Source: an uncultured archaeon
GTDB taxonomy: Archaea; Asgardarchaeota; Thorarchaeia; Thorarchaeales; Thorarchaeaceae
Assembly: GCA_964648855.1 (NCBI GenBank)
Contig: CAZYLT010000008.1
Location: forward strand, 81,156-113,155
DNA: 32,000 bases
Direction of reading: 5' to 3'
Part shown: piece after piece, positions 18,902 to 29,451 of the stretch
Numbering within the stretch: the stretch's first letter is position 1
How the letters are laid out: each line of letters begins with the position of its first letter
Program-made: the position numbers and the translations under genes
The notes under the pieces: generated by a model
The model's input: only the letters and a program-made list of their open reading frames with translations
The model's database searches: none
Told to the model about the DNA's origin: nothing

Positions 18902-21082
18902 TCATATTTTTGGCTTATCCCGCCTTTTTTGCCAAACAAACACAGCTGTTGCAATAATCAGAATAGCGATGCTGGCAACTACAATTTCAGGGTATGCTAA
19001 TTCGGCAGAAGTTACTCCAAGTTCTACAACATCTGAGGAAACAGAATTCAATCCCCAATCACTTGCTTCAACCCAAATACGTACATACTCGTTATCAGGT
19101 ATGGGTCCAATATTCGCGAACCATTTTCTCTCTTGTCTTTTGCAAACGTGTATAGTTTCCGTAGAATCTATTTCTACATGGACAGTCACATTATCGACAC
19201 CTGACAACGCGTCCCAAACGCGAACCGAAACCAAGTTGCCTTCTTCCGATAATGACTCCTGAACCAACTCCCATTCTTCAATGATGGGCGACTCCTGGTC
19301 AATAGTGGAATAGATGGCTCTGGTTAGCCAATCATTCGCTTCCTTCAAGGCCGAGTAACAGGCCGACCAATTCATCTTATAATACGCATCGTGTGCTCTA
19401 TCCCAATACTGTAAGATTCTGTCGTGGGCATTCGCAGTCTTCTGCAGAGCCGATGCCTCGATATTTCCAGCATGTTCTTGGTATCTAGATATTAGCCTTC
19501 CCTCCATTTGATCTACGTAAGTGCTTTGAACCCAGTTTTTATCAAATGTGCCCGTGCCGTTGTAGCTAGCGAAATAGCCCATGGGACTCAGGCTGAAGTC
19601 ACCAACGTAATGATGTGTATCCCATGTGTGTCCGATTCCGATCGCATGCATTGTTTCATGGAGCTGCATATAAGAGATTCCTGACTTCGGTGTTATGCCA
19701 TCAGCACGATAGTACCGTTCCCAGGATTTCCAAATGCAGGTCTGGCCACTACCACCCAGTCCCGTGTATTGCCTACCATAGACATGCATCTCCATGTTCT
19801 TCTTGATGAAGACAACTCCAAAGACGTTAATGTCCTCAGCAAAGATGTCAACATACTGATATCGCATATTCTCGTAGATGTCATTGAACATGGCCAGACC
19901 ATCAACGATTATCTTCCCACCTGACTCGGTTGCGTGGTCGCAGAACAGCTCGTTCCATTCGGGGTAGTCTGCAATATCCAAGAATTCTATGTCTACATCC
20001 CAGTCTATGAATGGTAGCAGCTCATCAAGATGGCTCTTCTGCATCTCCGCATCAGTGACCCATCGTAGGCTATCGACTGATATTCCCTCATCAACATCCA
20101 TGCCAAAGACTAGGCCCTTTAGAAATCCTGAATCTACATAGGAACTGGGTGAGTTCTGATTCGGAAGGAAGAGATAATTCACCGGGTCATAGGCCCACTC
20201 ATTCAGATATGTGCTGAGTTTGACTGCTATTTGTGGGTCTTCCTGATTCAGGCTATTCATCTTGTCCTCTAAGTCCTTCGTGCAATACTCGGGGGAATTG
20301 CTATAGTCTGGACCCTCATCCCACCATATTCTTGCCCATTGCAAATACCATTGGTCTGCTGACGGGTCGATAACGAAAAAGTTGTACCTGCCACCAAAAG
20401 CAGGATACTGTAGCTTGACAGAGGGATTGAGGCTATTGTCCCACTCTAGCCGGAACCAGTCCTGTTTCTCTCCACTATCGGGGTCAACTGGGTGGTAATC
20501 GTACCAATGCTCTATTGAATGATCTGAAGAATCTAATTTTGAATAATTCAGGAAGTATAGAACGTATCCTGGCTCTGGCGATTCCACTACAGGATTGTCA
20601 TTCAACCAGTCTTCTACGGGATATGCATCTATGACTCTGCCATCTCGTGGATAGAATATCCTCTGGGGGTTGTTGGGATGGGCTTTCTGATATTCGAGGG
20701 CATCTTCATCCAATAGTGACCCTGTCTCCGGTCCACTGAATGAGTTTGCCATAATGACATCTTCCAAGTCGTTAGCAAAGCCCTGACTGGCAAATCTCAC
20801 ATCATAGTCAATGAAATACTCTATTTGCTCATCGCCAATAGCATAGGCTCTGTAATGAGGCAGATCCTCAAGAATCGTATCCTGGTCTATCAGGTCTTCC
20901 TTGTAATTCACAAAAACGAGTTCAACCTTCCATTCTCTTGATACCGAGCTGAATTCTCCTTGTGAGAGATGGAATGCATGCTCTTGATGTACTACTGTTT
21001 CATTGCCTGCAGTGGAAGGAATTGCCACAAAAAGAAGTACAATGATGAACGCCCAGTATTTCATATCGAATCTAACATGCAT
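18902..21082 (-). CDS. Secreted, C-terminally membrane-anchored metzincin-type zinc metalloprotease
   Basis: Signal peptide MKYWAFIIVLLFVAIPSTA (start probably at this Met). HETMHAIGIGH (HExxHxxGxxH) at 19628-19660 and Met-turn-like SPMGY. Ig-like domain, then TM IVVASIAILIIATAVFVW followed by KRR. Confidence 0.8.
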   Translation of the reverse strand: MHVRFDMKYWAFIIVLLFVAIPSTAGNETVVHQEHAFHLSQGEFSSVSREWKVELVFVNYKEDLIDQDTILEDLPHYRAYAIGDEQIEYFIDYDVRFASQGFANDLEDVIMANSFSGPETGSLLDEDALEYQKAHPNNPQRIFYPRDGRVIDAYPVEDWLNDNPVVESPEPGYVLYFLNYSKLDSSDHSIEHWYDYHPVDPDSGEKQDWFRLEWDNSLNPSVKLQYPAFGGRYNFFVIDPSADQWYLQWARIWWDEGPDYSNSPEYCTKDLEDKMNSLNQEDPQIAVKLSTYLNEWAYDPVNYLFLPNQNSPSSYVDSGFLKGLVFGMDVDEGISVDSLRWVTDAEMQKSHLDELLPFIDWDVDIEFLDIADYPEWNELFCDHATESGGKIIVDGLAMFNDIYENMRYQYVDIFAEDINVFGVVFIKKNMEMHVYGRQYTGLGGSGQTCIWKSWERYYRADGITPKSGISYMQLHETMHAIGIGHTWDTHHYVGDFSLSPMGYFASYNGTGTFDKNWVQSTYVDQMEGRLISRYQEHAGNIEASALQKTANAHDRILQYWDRAHDAYYKMNWSACYSALKEANDWLTRAIYSTIDQESPIIEEWELVQESLSEEGNLVSVRVWDALSGVDNVTVHVEIDSTETIHVCKRQERKWFANIGPIPDNEYVRIWVEASDWGLNSVSSDVVELGVTSAELAYPEIVVASIAILIIATAVFVWQKRRDKPKI

Positions 21083-21134: not shown

Positions 21135-21168
21135 ATATCATATATATGGATATATTATGATATCATAA
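21135..21168. promoter_or_regulatory. TATA region with palindromic operator candidate
   Basis: TATATAT at 21141-21147 and perfect 14-bp palindrome TTATGATATCATAA at 21155-21168. Confidence 0.5.
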
Positions 21169-21171
21169 CAC

Positions 21172-21368
21172 GCGTCGGCTGGATTACAGTGATACCCTTA
21201 ATTCCGTTGCTCGCCTGAGCAAACCCTCCGAAAGCGGTGATTTCTGCCGGCGCTTTTCCTATCCACCCATAACCCCTATCATCTCGGGAAGTAGGTCGAG
21301 CAGGTTCCAAAGATATTCATGAATAGGCTGCTTGACCTCTTCCTTCCACACTTACCAAATTAGCCAGC
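21172..21368 (+). ncRNA. Candidate ~200-nt structured non-coding RNA of unknown family
   Basis: Closing stem 21174-21182/21360-21368, hairpins at 21207-21222 and 21231-21256, long hairpin 21287-21303/21328-21343. G-U pairs favour the + strand. TATA lies ~26 nt upstream. Confidence 0.55.
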
Positions 21369-21468: not shown

Positions 21469-21711
21469 ATGAAAGAGATCGGAGAGGTTACGAACTACTT
21501 TGCGAACATTGGTGTTGCAGCAATTATGCTAAGTGAAAAACTTGCAGTCGGTGATAAAATCAAGTTTGAAGGTGCAACAACTGATTTTGAGCAAGAAGTA
21601 GAATCTATGGAATATGAACGAGAGGAGATAATAGAAGGAGAAGCTGGTCAAGAAATTGCAGTCAAGACCAAGAAACGAGTACGCGAAGGCGACAAAGTCT
21701 TTCTCCTGTAA
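21469..21711 (+). CDS. Small translation-factor-like beta-barrel protein (resembles U32 peptidase C-terminal domain)
   Basis: IGEVTNYFANIGVAAI...LAVGDKI.FEG.TTDFEQEVESM...GQEIAVK...VREGDKVF. ATG 21469 has GGTGA upstream and is preferred over the TTG at 21433. Confidence 0.8.
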   Translation: MKEIGEVTNYFANIGVAAIMLSEKLAVGDKIKFEGATTDFEQEVESMEYEREEIIEGEAGQEIAVKTKKRVREGDKVFLL

Positions 21712-21847: not shown

Positions 21848-23323
21848 ATGGTGGCATTGCTTCATCTCATCATACATGTGCTCATCTACTCGGGTTCTGG
21901 GCTTGTTCTCTACTCGTTGCGACGAAGAGCTTCTCTCATTCCTATCTATGTGCATCTTGGGATTCTTCTTGTCTTCACATCCATGATGAGCAGCTTCTAT
22001 ATCTTAGAGATAACTGAAGGAATTGAAGTGGGGGGCGGCAGCATTGCGTATGCCGCTGTCCTTTGGACAGTGCTGTTTGTCTATATCATGGAGCGAGACC
22101 TGTCAGCAATCAAGCTGTTAATCCTTGGCATTCTAGCCGTTCAGTTTGTGTTTCTCTTTTCGTATCCGTATTTTGGATATCTTCTCAGCTATGAGGGCGT
22201 GACAAATCCCCTTGCTATCCCATCTGAGCTGTTTAATGTCAGTTTTGGCATATTCTGGGTTGGCAATATCCTGGCGTTGCTGGAGATGGTTGTGATGATA
22301 TTTTTTGTGGAACGAATTAGAGAAAGACTCACGAGCATTCCATTGTGGATTATTGTGTCAGGAGTCTATATCTTGACCCTCATCCTTGATGGTGTTCTTT
22401 ACCCCATCTTTGCTTATCCGGTTACCCAATCAATATCAATCGTCCAAGGCATTTCATCGCTGTTAAGCAAGATACTCCTCGGTTTAGCATACAGTCTCAT
22501 GTTTTCTGTAGGTATCACATTGCTGAAGCCTAGTAGTGGGTGGAGCAAGGATAAGAAACATCTCACCCTTGGCGATATGATATCTATGCCTAAAACCAAA
22601 GTGATTGACGCTTGGGAAAAGGTTGTCAAGAATCAGAAGATGGTAAGCTTGCTGCTTCGAATACTAGGTCATGACATCCGTAACTACAATTCCATGACAA
22701 TCAGCGCTCTTGAGGCACTTCAGCTAGAGCATCCTGACCTAGATGGTGACGTTCAAACAATGTTAGCTGAGATAGAAAAACTCCAATACCAATCAACGGA
22801 GCTTCTTAGCAATACAGTAACTCTGGGAGCTCTTCAAGGTGGCGACATCGAGGTGATAGCAATAGAATTGAAGAAGAAACTGAATGAGGCAAAGGCTAGA
22901 GTTGATATTTCATATCCTGACATCCATGTTGAGTTAGTAGGTGGCAAGTCCCTTGACGGAGCGTATGTTCTGGGAAATGAGTTGATTGATGTGGCGCTTT
23001 ACAACATACTATCCAACATGGTCAAACACAGAAAGCCAAGTCAGTCAAAGGTCTTCGTTGATGTCGAATCAGAAATCAATTCGGGTTTTCTACATCTCAT
23101 ACTCTCCGACCATGGAGTCGGAATCCCAGATCATAGGAAAGAAAGCATTTTTGATAGCATCGAAGCTAGACCCCGGAATTCAGATTTTGGGCTTTTTTTG
23201 GTAAGGAGGATTTTGAGTTTGGCAGATGCGAAGATACATGTTAGAAATAGGCCTGATTCGCCTGATGACCACAACAAGGGAACTTCATTTCATCTCAGGT
23301 TCCCTCTATCAGAGGCCTGTTAG
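21848..23323 (+). CDS. Membrane sensor histidine kinase with VUT/YhhQ-like multi-TM input domain
   Basis: About 7 TM helices. H-box LGHDIRN, N-box YNILSNMVKH, G1 SDHGVGIPD, FGLFLV, GTSF. Confidence 0.85.
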   Translation: MVALLHLIIHVLIYSGSGLVLYSLRRRASLIPIYVHLGILLVFTSMMSSFYILEITEGIEVGGGSIAYAAVLWTVLFVYIMERDLSAIKLLILGILAVQFVFLFSYPYFGYLLSYEGVTNPLAIPSELFNVSFGIFWVGNILALLEMVVMIFFVERIRERLTSIPLWIIVSGVYILTLILDGVLYPIFAYPVTQSISIVQGISSLLSKILLGLAYSLMFSVGITLLKPSSGWSKDKKHLTLGDMISMPKTKVIDAWEKVVKNQKMVSLLLRILGHDIRNYNSMTISALEALQLEHPDLDGDVQTMLAEIEKLQYQSTELLSNTVTLGALQGGDIEVIAIELKKKLNEAKARVDISYPDIHVELVGGKSLDGAYVLGNELIDVALYNILSNMVKHRKPSQSKVFVDVESEINSGFLHLILSDHGVGIPDHRKESIFDSIEARPRNSDFGLFLVRRILSLADAKIHVRNRPDSPDDHNKGTSFHLRFPLSEAC

Positions 23324-23462
23324 CTTGGATAAGCTGTTCGCTTCCAGAGCTGAATAAAGCAACCATCCGAAAATAGAACAGCGCTCATTTGTTGGCAATA
23401 TCAAGTACAGGTTGCTCCCAATGGCTAGTATTTGCATTAGCGCTGATGAACTCGAAAATGAA

Positions 23463-23478
23463 GTGCCAGAAAAGGCAC
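23463..23478. terminator. Hairpin between convergent kinase genes
   Basis: GTGCC-agaaaa-GGCAC. Confidence 0.3.
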
Positions 23479-23505
23479 CGATTAAATCAGTCCAAGTCCT
23501 CAGAT

Positions 23506-25299
23506 TCATATATTATGGCGGGGAAAGAGCACCCGAAAATCAGCACCTTTGGAATGATCCCCAGGGATTCTATTCCGAACCTGTACAAATCCTCCATATT
23601 TCTCTGCTATCTGAGACACCTGGTGAAGACCCACTCCACCATATCTCCTATGTGGGTCGAAGATTTCTCCCCGCCTTATTTCAGAGAGACCTGCGCCGTC
23701 ATCTTTGACTGAAAGCTCGTAGCCTTTGATGCCTCTCTCAAGACGAACCCATACCCGCTTTTGTTCATGGGGATTATTCTCAACTGCATTTTCTAGAAGA
23801 TTTGACATCAAATATTCCAGGTTGTCATCTGCAAGAATGACTGGCTCTACAGGCTGAATCTCAACATCAATCTCTACGCGTTTATGCATGGTTCTAAATC
23901 CATTCACCGTGTTCAGAATCGCGGTATCAAGTCTTCGCGTTCTGAGAGGTTTCTTAGAGAGGTCCTCTGTTTGTTTTAGCTTGTCTATCAAACGCGCAAT
24001 CTTGTGGACCCCCTCACTTAATGCATTCAATGCGTCTTTATTCATTTCTTCGCCACTTGACCACTCCAACATGTCTGTTGCCATCGCGATTCCTTGGAGA
24101 TGATTTCGCACATCGTGGCCAAGCAGGTCAAGATAGAGATTTGCAGAGACCTCCGCCCTCTTAAGCTGGGTGATATCCCTAATTGACCACACTCGAGCAA
24201 CCACCTCTTCATCCTCTGCCAGAGCGCTGGTGTAGCACTCATAGGTCGTCCCATTTCTGTATCTCAACAGTGTTTTCCAATCCATATCTGAGTCCTGAAT
24301 ACCCTTGGCTTTTTCTAGGAATTGATTTCCATTCTCTATAAGCGACTTGAGAGCTGAAAATATGTCCTGGGCTCGCATCGTGTCAAGTTCAACACCAGGG
24401 AATGAGAAGTTGTCTTCAAATGATTTGTTCCAATACATAGGATATCCCGCAGAGTCAACAACAAGAATGCCTGAGTCTACTGCTTCAATTGTCGCTGCAT
24501 AAAGGCTCTCCACATTCTTGATAGCTAGTGCCGCTTCTTTCGTTTCTGAAATGTCTCGAATACCGGCAACAATGTGGCTGGATTCGGGATGAAGAGCAAG
24601 TGTTGCCGAGTAGTATTTTTCCCCATCGCCGCTATCTAATACGTACTCTAAGGTTTCTATGCCCCCGTGACTGCGTAATCTACTCATTACCTGAAGGTGT
24701 TGTCTTGCCACGTCTGGCGGAAGAACGTCTCGGATATGCTTTCCAAGGAATTCTGATGGTGGGGCATACAGGAGCTTTTCATCAGATGTGTAATAGTCAG
24801 AATAATGGTTGTTCTCATCTATTACAAAGACAATATCGTGCAAGTTCTCAATCAATTCCCTGAACTTTCGCTCGCTCGCTCTCAAAGCTGCCTTCACTTC
24901 TCTTTCCTGCCGCATCAACCTCTCTTTGACCAACGTGTCGTCCATAGTTTTTAGAAGATGCTCGATATCGAGAGGCTTGGTCATATATGCGACAGCATTT
25001 GTGTTAAGAGACTTGATAGCACTATCAAACGATGCATAGCCTGTTATCATAATTATCGGGATATCTGATTGCATCCGTTCAATTTGTCTTAGGAGTTCCG
25101 TCCCATCATAATCTGGCAAACGTACGTCAAGAAGCGCAATATCGAAACGCTCCTCCTCCATTAGTTGTAGAGCTTCTGTCCCCGTCCTAGCCACACACGT
25201 TCCATACCCCTCTCTCTTGAATATATGTTTCAAGGTTTGACATAGACTCTCGTTATCATCAATGACAAGGATATTGGCCGATTTACTGTAGTTCTCCAT
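23506..25299 (-). CDS. Hybrid REC-PAS-PAS histidine kinase
   Basis: ILVIDD...LLDVRLPDYDG...MITG...YMTKP receiver, two PAS-like domains, LGHDVRN, NLLENA, DDGAG, GGVGL. Start likely MENYSK (25299); the ORF track extends to 25365. Confidence 0.9.
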   Translation of the reverse strand: MENYSKSANILVIDDNESLCQTLKHIFKREGYGTCVARTGTEALQLMEEERFDIALLDVRLPDYDGTELLRQIERMQSDIPIIMITGYASFDSAIKSLNTNAVAYMTKPLDIEHLLKTMDDTLVKERLMRQEREVKAALRASERKFRELIENLHDIVFVIDENNHYSDYYTSDEKLLYAPPSEFLGKHIRDVLPPDVARQHLQVMSRLRSHGGIETLEYVLDSGDGEKYYSATLALHPESSHIVAGIRDISETKEAALAIKNVESLYAATIEAVDSGILVVDSAGYPMYWNKSFEDNFSFPGVELDTMRAQDIFSALKSLIENGNQFLEKAKGIQDSDMDWKTLLRYRNGTTYECYTSALAEDEEVVARVWSIRDITQLKRAEVSANLYLDLLGHDVRNHLQGIAMATDMLEWSSGEEMNKDALNALSEGVHKIARLIDKLKQTEDLSKKPLRTRRLDTAILNTVNGFRTMHKRVEIDVEIQPVEPVILADDNLEYLMSNLLENAVENNPHEQKRVWVRLERGIKGYELSVKDDGAGLSEIRRGEIFDPHRRYGGVGLHQVSQIAEKYGGFVQVRNRIPGDHSKGADFRVLFPRHNI

Positions 25300-25474
25300 T
25301 TTCGTCGTCAAAGAAGATGGCCTCCATATCCCCCTCTTCTGTAGCTTATGAAGATGCTGGTACATCTTGAAGCTGGATCTTCACTTGAGGATTCCTGTAA
25401 GCATTCATTTGTTCCTGCTGAAAGACTTTCTATCCGGAACGGCACAGACGCTCCAATAGCCGTCAAGTCTAGAG

Positions 25475-26233
25475 CTATTCAACTCGCCTCCTTGAAAATA
25501 TATCTCTCATCATAGAGAATAGCTTTTCTAGATCGAGCGGCTTTTCTAAACAGGCATAGGCCGAATGGAAAAGTGCACTGGCAACCTCTTCACTTAGCCT
25601 CGAATAGAAGCCTGTGATTAGAATAATAATGGATTCCGGGTCGTCCTCCCTCATCTTGAGAAAAGTTTGGAGTCCATTCATATCAGGCATGTTCATGTCC
25701 ATAAGGACAATGTCACAATCTTCTTTTCTAGCGATTTGAATGGCATTCCCGCCGCTGTCAGTTGTTAGTACAGTAAAGCCCTGACGCTCGAGTACTCTTC
25801 TAGATGATTCTAGAAATGATGTATCATCATCTACCACTAGGATTAACCCTTGCTGCTGAAGATTATTCACATTATTGATGAGCTCCAGAACTTTAGTGAA
25901 GTCTACTGGTTTGTGGAGAACACCGCCTGCGCCTTCCTCAAAGGATTCTCGAATGCGATCCTCAACCGAGTATGCGGTCATCATAATTACAACCACATTT
26001 GGAATAATTGGCTTGATTTCTTTAAGGGCTTCAACTCCATTCATACTTGGCATTCTGATATCCATGAAGATTATGTCAATATCGTGGTTCTGCTTAGCTA
26101 TTGCTATTGCCTCTGCCCCACTATTTGCAGTCTTGACTGAATGTCCTAGTCGGTTGAGGACCTGCGACATGGTCCGAACAATGCTTTGGTTGTCGTCAAC
26201 TATGAGTATATTCAAAAGCTTGGACATGGTCAT
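25475..26233 (-). CDS. Tandem double-receiver response regulator (no output domain)
   Basis: Two complete REC domains (IVDD/FMDIRMP/MTAY/HKP and VVDD/LMDMNMP/ITG/EKP). ATG at 26233 overlaps the upstream TGA. Confidence 0.9.
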   Translation of the reverse strand: MTMSKLLNILIVDDNQSIVRTMSQVLNRLGHSVKTANSGAEAIAIAKQNHDIDIIFMDIRMPSMNGVEALKEIKPIIPNVVVIMMTAYSVEDRIRESFEEGAGGVLHKPVDFTKVLELINNVNNLQQQGLILVVDDDTSFLESSRRVLERQGFTVLTTDSGGNAIQIARKEDCDIVLMDMNMPDMNGLQTFLKMREDDPESIIILITGFYSRLSEEVASALFHSAYACLEKPLDLEKLFSMMRDIFSRRRVE

Positions 26234-29200
26234 CAAGTCTCCTTGCGGAGCGGCAAATAGACAGTGAAACAAGCACCTTTGTTAGGGTTGTTTGATGCCT
26301 CAATTCTCCCCTGATGGGCTTCAATCATGGACTTCGCTATGGCAAGCCCAAGGCCAATTCCTTTGGTTTTTCTTGTGAAAAGGGGTTCGAAGATTTTCTC
26401 CAATTCATCTTGTGCTATGCCTGTTCCGGTATCAGCCACCGAAACAGCTACCTCATCTGTAGTAGTTTGCCGGATTTTGACGTCTATTTTACCCTCTCCG
26501 GATATAGATTCAATTGCGTTAGATATAATGTTCTCAAACACGGATTTGAGTTGAACTGGATCGGCCAGAATGGTTGATTTGTTAATTTTTTCTTCAATCT
26601 GCATTGTTATGTTGTCTGGAATGTCAATATCATCCATAACCTCTCTCAAGACATCTGTGATCTCAACTTTCTTCCTCGTCGGAGGCTCTGGACGCGCAAA
26701 GCTCAATAAACTTTCGATGATATCTACTGCATTATTAAGCTCCTTATCTATGATGTTGAGTGTTTCACGGACTTCTTCGTCGTGGCTGTCGATGGCCATT
26801 CGAAGGAAATAGACTCCATTACTGATTGAAGCCAATGGGTTTCTAAGTTCGTGTCCAATACCTCCGCTGAGTTTGCCTAAGGCAGCCAGTCGTTCTTTCC
26901 GAAGCAACTCATTTTGAAGCCGCCTCAATTCTGACATATCTCGTGCAACAACAATGAAGTGTATGGGTTTCCCCTTCTTATCTCTAAGGACACTAACATT
27001 CAGAAGCGAAGGAACTCTACTACCATCCCTTCTCAAAAGGTCATACTCAAGATTACGTAGACTCCCAACTTCTTTGATTCGTTCGTTGTTCCTGACCACC
27101 CTTTCCTGGTCTTCTGGAGCAATCAATTCTCGTCTATTTCTTCCGATCATCTCCTCATGACTGTCAAACCCATGAATCTTCAGAGCCATGCGATTAACTA
27201 TGACAATCTGCATGTTCAAGTCAGTGACAACAACAGCGACTGGGATGATTTCAAGCATTGTTCGATACAGCTCTTGGCTCTCGCGAAGCTGGATGGTTCT
27301 TTCCTCTATTCTTCTTTCAAGGGTTTCATTGAGTTCCTTGAGCTCTTTCTCCGCCTTCTTCTGCCTGGTGACATCAGTTGATAATACAAGAATTTGGTCT
27401 ACTTCGTTCGCGGTATTCCTGATCGGAACCGCTCTCACCAAAAAAGTTCTGTTGCCATATTCTCCCTCAAATTGCACTTTATTTCCATTGAGCACTCTTC
27501 CGTACTGCTCAGTTACAATCCTAGCAAAATCTTCAGGCAGGACCTCAAACACACTCTTACCCCGAAGTGCTTCATCGGAGAGACCAACTGATTGCAGCAA
27601 TTCACCTGCACTGAACAGGTACCTGAAGTTACTATCCATCACATGAACGATGCCGCCAGGGATGCTGTTTGCGATGATCTCATAGTTCTGTTCTAACTCT
27701 GTTCTTTTTGTGATATCTTGAACTTGGATAACGATCTGGTGGGGCTTTCCCTTTAAATCATGAACAATCGATGCGTTGACGATAACGAAGACATAGCCAC
27801 TATCTTTTCGTTTGAATATAGTTTCGAACGATACCCGTTCCTTCATACCATTGACTAGGGCTTGAATATCCGTTTTGCCTGTGCTTTTGTTCTCTTCAGC
27901 ATCCAGCTCCCATAGGTTCATTGTTAGCAGTTCTTCTTTCTGATACCCAACTAAATTGCAGAACGATTTGTTACTATCTAGAACCTCGCCCCTTAGGTTT
28001 GTAGCAACGATTCCGATTGCAGCTCCCTCGATTGCCATACCAAGAAGCTGCTCCCTCTCCTTGATCTCCCTCTGCATTTGCTCTTTCGACAATTCATGTG
28101 CAATGAGATTTGTCACCTCACGAATAAGTGACAGCTCTTCTTTCAAGAACGGACCGTGATCCTCGTCAGGTCGTTCTTCGGAGTATGCCACGGCAAGTTC
28201 TAATTCCTCCTCAGGATATATGAGTGCGTCCGACTTGAGAATCCAATCTGTTTCATGGAACCCTTCTGTCATCATACTCTGTTTTCCGTGTCGGATGCGT
28301 ACCTCTGTGATGTCCGGGAATTGCCACCCTTGTCTGATTGGCTCAAGTAGCTCTCTCATCCATTCCAATTCAGATTGGGTTTCAGCTCGCACGATTCTGC
28401 TAACGCTGTAAAGACAGGTTTGCTCCTTCACACGTTCTCGAAGAACATTATTTGCCTCTCTAAGCTCTTGTGTTCGATGTTGAACAAGTGATTCTAGCTC
28501 ACGATTCAACCGACGCAGGTCATCCTCAGCATGCCGTCTGGCTTGTTCAGACTGGTGTTTAGACCAAGCTATGGAGAGGTCAGCAGCAATCTCTCGTAGG
28601 AGTTCAATCTCCTGCTCATCTAAGGCCTTCCTCCTTCGTACGATAACCTGCAAGATTCCAATCGTATTTTCACTATCAGTGATGGGAATTGTAACAGTCC
28701 AAAACGGCTCTGGTCCACATTCCACACGATATGTACATTCGATGCAGTCACTTGCAGAATCAATAAGCTGTACCTTGCCTTGGGTGATACTATCTAAGAC
28801 GCAATCTGGCGCGTCGCCTTCTCCATGGGTCGTGGCTGACCAACTGACTTTCATCTGAGCTTCGCCTGCGTGAGCCTGGGGTCTGATCATGTCTCCCTCC
28901 TCTATTGCAAAGGCTATGGCACATCCAATGTATCCCCTGGCTTCGACGAGTGATGAACAGGTCTTCTCAAGCATCTTATTGAAATCCTGTTCTTGGACGA
29001 TAATCTGATTGACATTCCTGATAGCAAGAAGCAGAGAACTGACATGGGAACTCTGCAGCCAAGATTGAAGAGATTCAGACTCTGAGGCATCTGGGTCCGT
29101 GAGATTCTTGAATGACCAAAAGATTCCAACAGGGGTTTTTCCTTCAACCAATATGGAAGCATCGACCCAATAGCTAGTTTGGCGTCCTGCCGGAATATCT

Positions 29201-29451
29201 AGGACAACAACATCAGAATACTTACCCTTCTCTTGCACTGTGTCCAATAGAATCTGCATCTCTTCCGAATCCTTCATGAATTCGGTGATAGTGCGTCTCA
29301 GCAACCTGCTCTCTGGACACTCTAGATTCTTCAGGAGTACCGTATTGACCTTCTGAATTGCTCCCTTCAAATCAGTGACAACGACAGGAAAGGTCAAAGC
29401 ATTCAAAGGCATTCGATGGATGAGTTCATCAAGGTCCCGTTTTGAAGTCAT
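26233..29451 (-). CDS. Cytoplasmic multi-sensor histidine kinase (PAS-GAF-GAF-like-PAS-PAS-PAS-HisKA-HATPase)
   Basis: PAS/PAC ends (QDIT, TDVT, RDMS), ERLAALGKLSGGIGHELRNPL, NIISNA, DTGTGI, FEPLFTRK, GIGLGL. Confidence 0.93.
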   Translation of the reverse strand: MTSKRDLDELIHRMPLNALTFPVVVTDLKGAIQKVNTVLLKNLECPESRLLRRTITEFMKDSEEMQILLDTVQEKGKYSDVVVLDIPAGRQTSYWVDASILVEGKTPVGIFWSFKNLTDPDASESESLQSWLQSSHVSSLLLAIRNVNQIIVQEQDFNKMLEKTCSSLVEARGYIGCAIAFAIEEGDMIRPQAHAGEAQMKVSWSATTHGEGDAPDCVLDSITQGKVQLIDSASDCIECTYRVECGPEPFWTVTIPITDSENTIGILQVIVRRRKALDEQEIELLREIAADLSIAWSKHQSEQARRHAEDDLRRLNRELESLVQHRTQELREANNVLRERVKEQTCLYSVSRIVRAETQSELEWMRELLEPIRQGWQFPDITEVRIRHGKQSMMTEGFHETDWILKSDALIYPEEELELAVAYSEERPDEDHGPFLKEELSLIREVTNLIAHELSKEQMQREIKEREQLLGMAIEGAAIGIVATNLRGEVLDSNKSFCNLVGYQKEELLTMNLWELDAEENKSTGKTDIQALVNGMKERVSFETIFKRKDSGYVFVIVNASIVHDLKGKPHQIVIQVQDITKRTELEQNYEIIANSIPGGIVHVMDSNFRYLFSAGELLQSVGLSDEALRGKSVFEVLPEDFARIVTEQYGRVLNGNKVQFEGEYGNRTFLVRAVPIRNTANEVDQILVLSTDVTRQKKAEKELKELNETLERRIEERTIQLRESQELYRTMLEIIPVAVVVTDLNMQIVIVNRMALKIHGFDSHEEMIGRNRRELIAPEDQERVVRNNERIKEVGSLRNLEYDLLRRDGSRVPSLLNVSVLRDKKGKPIHFIVVARDMSELRRLQNELLRKERLAALGKLSGGIGHELRNPLASISNGVYFLRMAIDSHDEEVRETLNIIDKELNNAVDIIESLLSFARPEPPTRKKVEITDVLREVMDDIDIPDNITMQIEEKINKSTILADPVQLKSVFENIISNAIESISGEGKIDVKIRQTTTDEVAVSVADTGTGIAQDELEKIFEPLFTRKTKGIGLGLAIAKSMIEAHQGRIEASNNPNKGACFTVYLPLRKET

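Follow-up and report, generated by a model that had tools for sequence, protein, structure and literature searches.

Comparison of sequences across Thorarchaeota points to a real, uncatalogued family of small RNAs, which is confined to one Asgard family among the genomes searched. The copy described here is very probably a stand-alone gene for a small non-coding RNA, driven by a TATA box and located on the plus strand of the window (the whole 32,000-nt stretch of DNA that was analysed). The window comes from a Thorarchaeota genome, and the same-genus relative G001 is the record Ca. Thorarchaeota TEKIR_14. An earlier note on this DNA had proposed an independent plus-strand small RNA with its own promoter, and the proposal is supported by family-wide conservation, covariation, TATA spacing and the single copy. 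All the sequences listed in that note are present where it had placed them. No description of the RNA was found in Rfam or the searchable literature, and the searchable literature gave no description of small regulatory RNAs of Asgard archaea.

The core of the RNA is closed by P1, an 8-bp stem formed by 21172-79 and 21246-53. P1 is both the lowest-energy closing helix (probability 0.95 here) and the family-wide one. The positions of the features are listed in Table 1. Judging from the TATA spacing, transcription would start at or just before 21172, and the transcript would extend from ~21172 to 21345-70. The long 3′ hairpin downstream of the core probably belongs to the transcript.

Table 1. 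Features of the RNA locus and its two flanking genes.
Feature	Position	Strand	Basis or remark
Divergent gene for a membrane-anchored metzincin-type protease	18902..21064	-	HETMH zinc motif, SPMG turn (Met-turn), hydrophobic N- and C-termini
TATA box of the protease gene itself	21089-96	-	Context, outside the RNA
AT-rich inverted repeat overlapping the promoter	21135..21163	.	From sequence
TATA box of the RNA gene	21140..21147 (TATATAT at 21141-47)	+	Spacing kept across homologues
P1 closing stem, 5′ strand, GCGUCGGC; putative RNA 5′ end	21172..21179	+	Pair probability 0.95-1.0 in three species
Variable interior	21180..21245	+	Weak helix 21181-87/21237-43, hairpin 21207-22
Interior motifs of this copy	CCCUCC (unpaired) 21224-29; GAUUUC (adjoining P1) 21239-44	+	Predicted fold
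P1 closing stem, 3′ strand, GCCGGCGC	21246..21253	+	Pairing probability, double changes, sister-species identity
Unpaired C/U-rich linker, candidate pairing seed	21254..21286	+	Unpaired in the predicted fold
Long 3′ hairpin (16-bp helix of the earlier note)	21287..21343	+	Conserved arms; not present in all genera
Distal segment able to pair with 21177-85 (alternative fold, this genus only)	21357..21365	+	Of 9 pairs, 8, 8 and 9 can form in the three species
Downstream 80-aa EF-Tu-domain-2/U32-C-like gene	21469..21711	+	Context, outside the RNA

Conservation within the genus was judged from three distinct sequences, those of this genome and two sister species. The 82-nt core is identical at 78-79 of 82 positions (about 96%), whereas only 31 of 71 four-fold degenerate sites of a neighbouring gene (44%) are identical in the same species. 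The comparison of the core with these neutral sites indicates that the core is under strong purifying selection. Within it, the small hairpin that the earlier note had written as UUGCUC-gccu-GAGCAA lies at 21207-12/21217-22 and is invariant in all three species, as is the interior CCCUCC. The linker of this genus contains UCCACCC at 21262-68; most other genera carry CUCCUC there. The 16-bp helix pointed out earlier is likewise present, and its arms are conserved in the three species at 8-9 of 9 and 8-9 of 10 positions. Its inner part is identical at only 15-21 of 38 positions, yet folds in each species, and the pair 21296/21333 is C-G, A-U and G-C across the three. This inner part (21296-21333 and its equivalents in L298 and L293) is exactly 38 nt long in the three species at 40-55% identity. 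A bulge-helix-bulge-like motif occurs at its base in G001; none is seen in this genome.

Homologues were reached by reading upstream of the protease orthologues, where the same TATA box and closing stem appear in most genera. A promoter-plus-stem pattern then matches 58 of the 86 family genomes, while a reversed-pattern control matches six of 86. The collection comprises 58 distinct members from 15 of the 16 genera of the family, with the stem consensus GCGUCGGY with RCCGACGC and a core of 70-114 nt; the interior enclosed by P1 (54-98 nt) is highly variable. Covariation, a check suggested in the earlier note, supports P1: double-sided changes occur in four of its eight pairs (17 cells), a result reached in none of 500 shuffles, and slid controls are 22-53% paired. 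P1 is paired in 99.5% of cases across members, a figure that is inflated because members were selected with the stem pattern. Four lines of evidence do not depend on that pattern: the family was first found through synteny, double changes occur, the reversed control rarely matches, and two divergent members (G042 and G095) were picked up by the covariance model alone. Covariation extends to two interior hairpins in the largest genus, with double changes in 13 of 20 pairs. The plus strand folds better than the minus strand in 49 of the 58 members, and the G-U pairs favour it too, in agreement with the strand assigned previously.

The interior cannot be aligned between genera, and hairpins are gained and lost in it. 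Among its unpaired bases, C makes up 37%, A 34% and G 7%. The recurrence of ACCC, which had been remarked on in this copy, disappears at the family level (10.5 observed against 10.7 expected in the interiors), and the idea of an ACCC or template-like element is not supported. Among interior hexamers, GAUUUC with its variants shows the strongest enrichment in the family and usually lies beside the P1 3′ strand. On the 3′ side the stem is followed by a pyrimidine-rich linker; CUCCUC is found within 45 nt of P1 in 34 of the 58 members (genus-weighted 6.5 of 15, against 0.6 in shuffles) and in one of 31 tRNA trailers. After the linker, many genera have a strong 3′ hairpin; the largest genus has a U-rich tract instead. 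In this largest genus (g5; L325:2481-2605 and relatives), the interior of the RNA is four-way and cloverleaf-like, and one hairpin loop, UUUCCGCAG, is nearly invariant there and absent from other genera.

The RNA appears to be non-coding, as had been thought. No reading frame is conserved across the family: members have open frames about as often as chance predicts, and their lengths show no preference modulo 3. An antisense frame of 51 codons (21155-21310) is open in two species and interrupted upstream in the third, and was rejected. An intron in the core was rejected as well, there being no consistent bulge-helix-bulge; the length differences resemble gain and loss of hairpins.

The covariance model, built with the promoter and tail, gives a single hit in 59 of the 86 family genomes (19 of 23 of good quality) and never two; most of these hits are sequences used for training or their close kin. 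The model gave no match in 79 other Asgard genomes or in genus g10. A diverged stem would escape the model, so that absence here means not found among the genomes searched. Two single-contig family genomes, G044 and G082 (86% and 77% complete), match neither the RNA nor the protease. DNA BLAST recovered only the same-genus copy and nothing beyond the genus; apart from TEKIR_14, exact-word searches of collections of metagenomes and genomes turned up chance matches. The matches of a loose phylum-wide pattern were lost in noise, and two pattern matches on viral contigs were set aside as chance, their covariance model score being nil. The combination of a fixed, acceptor-like clasp with a free interior explains why ordinary sequence search missed the family.

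The folding of this copy is only modestly better than that of shuffled sequences for the core (z -1.79), which would also suit a DNA element or mobile-element remnant that is not an RNA gene. Such an element is highly improbable: copies are strictly one per genome, G-U pairs suit one strand only, compensatory changes are present, and the core is far better conserved than neutral sites. The whole 197 nt, when compared with shuffles, gives z -2.28 (4/200) on the plus strand and +0.89 on the minus strand, so that folding beats the shuffles on the plus strand only. No second copy was found in this genome, and a MITE or IS remnant was rejected since there is one copy per genome rather than multiple dispersed copies.

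Known RNA classes were compared in turn. Rfam 15 gave no match at the gathering score in the window, nor over the RNA in eight homologous loci, so the Rfam check proposed earlier returned no family; a mir-144 match is spurious, caused by the AT-rich inverted repeat. SRP, RNase P and 5S RNA are rejected, the true copies of this genome lying on other contigs, and the earlier exclusion of the first two stands. The likeness to a retron msr-msd is not supported: no reverse transcriptase is recognisable beside the RNA, as judged by Pfam in the window and by protein termini at the other loci; the nearest genes are the protease, a CoA-binding-type protein, the 80-aa protein and assorted others. A box C/D guide RNA was rejected because the box-like words of this genus are not kept in others; a guide-target search gave no long match to 16S rRNA; 23S rRNA is absent from the assembly. 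Resemblances to the 3′ end of 16S rRNA and to the peptidyl-transferase region of 23S rRNA are limited to this genus and were dropped. With vault RNA in view, a search for major vault protein matched none of 26 genomes, and the control genomes likewise gave no match.

The locus is flanked by a minus-strand gene of 720 aa (start 21064) and the plus-strand 80-aa gene (21469-21711). From its conserved position, the protease start is apparently 21064, not 21082. The RNA is richer in GC (45-57%) than its flanks (25-33%), as noticed at first reading; the genome average is 44.7%. The upstream TATATAT reported earlier is confirmed, and across the family a TATA-like hexamer starts 29-32 nt upstream of the first G in 53 of the 58 homologues. 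The promoter region is identical to those of the two sister species at 27-28 of 32 positions. The inverted repeat overlapping it might serve both this promoter and the divergent one of the protease as a regulator site. Elsewhere in the window, 146-10290 (+) and 21848-29451 hold two very long ORFs, of 824+ and 2557 aa, together with a histidine kinase and receiver gene cluster with PAS, GAF and VUPS domains.

In 51 of the 58 members the RNA and the protease gene are arranged head-to-head, and one of the other seven is on a short contig; the RNA thus lies away from that gene in up to seven members, and the protease also occurs without the RNA. The metzincin-type protease itself is widespread in the Thorarchaeal family (63 of 86 genomes) and has no Pfam match. 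The genes downstream of the RNA vary between genera and are often on the opposite strand. Since the RNA and the protease are separable and the downstream genes differ, the RNA is taken as an independent gene and not a leader.

In the ~200-nt multibranched architecture of the earlier note, both the second hairpin and the end-to-end helix are excluded by P1. The proposed pairing of the ends (21174-82 with 21360-68) is available as an alternative but is not a conserved architecture, only 6-7 of 9 pairs being kept in the sister species; a shifted register, 21177-85/21357-65, keeps 8-9 of 9. For the AAAG-CGGUG hairpin, the AAAG/CUUU extension is broken in both sisters, and one double change (G-C to A-U) is found in one of them. 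The multibranched fold as a whole is better described as a genus-specific alternative, 4.4-6.4 kcal/mol less stable in the three species. The simulated chance of the shifted pairing being retained is 0.01-0.13 (post hoc). A two-state cis-acting leader, in which the RNA of this genus would switch between the P1 fold and the multibranched fold to control read-through into the 80-aa gene, would draw on this alternative and on the double change just mentioned. This leader is very unlikely. The downstream gene differs between genera and often lies on the other strand; a promoter-like element precedes each of the two neighbour genes, that of the 80-aa gene being a conserved one near 21418-27; and orthologues of the 80-aa gene in other genera have no RNA upstream. 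Furthermore, the signal comes from three sequences only, and the family as a whole gives no signal for the alternative pairing (10% of members at p<0.1).

As to function, masking of Shine-Dalgarno sites by C/U-rich single strands is tentatively the best mechanism in our analysis. The first ~82 nt would be clasped by P1, and the clasp, together with the 3′ hairpin or U-tract, would hold the C/U-rich linker single-stranded. The linker and the C-rich interior strands might then base-pair in trans with the GA-rich Shine-Dalgarno sites of several mRNAs, so that ribosomes could not load. In this genome, GAGGAG, the complement of CUCCUC, ranks among the most frequent hexamers ahead of start codons, where the most frequent pentamer is AGGAG. 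Precedents for such masking by C-rich seeds are sRNA41 and sRNA154 of Methanosarcina mazei (PMC5867862) and RsaE/RoxS of Firmicutes (PMC6158497). Like these, the present RNA is stand-alone, ~100-200 nt long, and has unpaired C-rich motifs between stems, often with a 3′ hairpin, the motif complementary to Shine-Dalgarno sequences being found in 34 of the 58 members and only as a variant in this genus; unlike them, it has a fixed end-to-end stem and a seed that varies between genera, and there is no sequence relation.

Several observations weaken the pairing model. The anti-RBS idea of the earlier note gains some support from the CUCCUC 3′ of the stem, but this genus and several others lack CUCCUC (UCCACCC and the interior CCCUCC are found here). 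The best-conserved part is the paired stem and not the seed, unlike in most pairing sRNAs. Pyrimidine-rich trailers also serve as ordinary archaeal terminators. A duplex scan of start regions gave no convincing target, and a 16-nt perfect antisense match was rejected, as it falls inside a reductase-like coding region with a chance expectation of about 0.26.

Since the sequence of P1 is conserved as well as its pairing, a protein probably reads P1. A possible, if doubtful, function that we consider nearly as likely as Shine-Dalgarno masking is that of a Y-RNA-like protein scaffold or decoy, in which one protein reads the stem while the C/A-rich interior tethers or titrates nucleases or KH/Sm-type binders. 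The modular plan of Y RNAs, a 5′/3′ stem with variable loops (10.1101/312249), agrees with a 70-114-nt core whose stem sequence is nearly fixed while interior hairpins come and go. The likeness to Y RNAs, including bacterial YrlA (10.1101/312249), extends to the end-paired stem closing a variable, loop-rich domain, to size and to a tRNA link, with the proviso that the end pairing holds for the core and the transcript probably reaches further 3′. On the other hand, the stem is short and unbulged, the 3′ extension is long, there is no YrlA-type D/T-loop module, and Ro60/TROVE was found in none of the 41 Asgard genomes searched, with positive controls. A linked partner gene is also missing, the sole constant neighbour being a secreted protease.

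The stem sequence itself has a counterpart in tRNA. The RNA carries a seven-pair, acceptor-like stem whose sequence is that of archaeal tRNA-Gly acceptor stems, and archaeal tRNA-Gly genes, for example in Haloferax and Woesearchaeota, have the same seven pairs and a similar TATA spacing. When the strict promoter-plus-stem pattern was run on 225 non-family Asgard genomes, all six hits were tRNA genes (five Gly, one Ser). A T-arm-like motif just 5′ of the stem 3′ strand is common to the RNA and tRNA-Gly genes. The RNA differs in lacking a cloverleaf, the D and T loops, an anticodon and CCA, its interior is unalignable between genera, and ARAGORN called no tRNA at the locus; the earlier statement that it is not a tRNA holds. 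A tRNA-Gly acceptor arm may be the origin of the clasp, though a GC-rich stem starting with G could also reflect convergence with tRNA-Gly.

These features might also suggest an acceptor-stem mimic of tRNA-Gly, trimmed by RNase Z, CCA-tailed and acting as a substrate or competitor of tRNA enzymes (GlyRS, CCA enzyme). Besides the shared stem and the pattern matches outside the family, the GAYUYC motif preceding the 3′ strand looks like a T arm's 3′ half, and the base following the stem is A in 33 of the 58 members. Even so, the mimic is quite unlikely: the T loop, D loop and an encoded CCA are lacking, while the tRNA genes found in this genome encode CCA (bar one doubtful call); 3-4 members have A-U as the third pair; the discriminator varies; and the three tRNA-Gly genes elsewhere in this genome have a different stem.

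Some peculiarities of stable RNA genes in this genome are recorded here. Most tRNA genes contain small introns at varied positions, and the T arms of tRNA-Lys(UUU) (G000:C2:2645) and tRNA-Gly(CCC) (C4:73470) carry insertions. At G000:C21:11862, ~350 nt upstream of the intact tRNA-Gly(UCC), there is a 5′ half resembling tRNA-Gly, which may be a fragment, a pseudogene or a heavily interrupted copy. The 16S rRNA gene (L071, G000:C19:30672 onward) contains at least three short hairpin insertions resembling small introns, one near position 1310 and two in the last ~100 nt, one of these just before the anti-Shine-Dalgarno tail.

A further scenario, which we regard as unlikely, joins the Y-RNA-like plan with the tRNA link: a tRNA-Gly gene would have been recruited in the ancestor of the Asgard family as a Y-RNA-like scaffold, its acceptor stem becoming the handle for a protein other than Ro60 and its interior left free. 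If true, the 'tRNA-derived tether' design would have arisen independently in archaea. Being confined to one family in the genomes searched, the RNA has no bearing yet on eukaryote origins. Its retention across 15 genera suggests that it probably has a standing job, and the RNA family offers exact predictions of start site, stem and seed.
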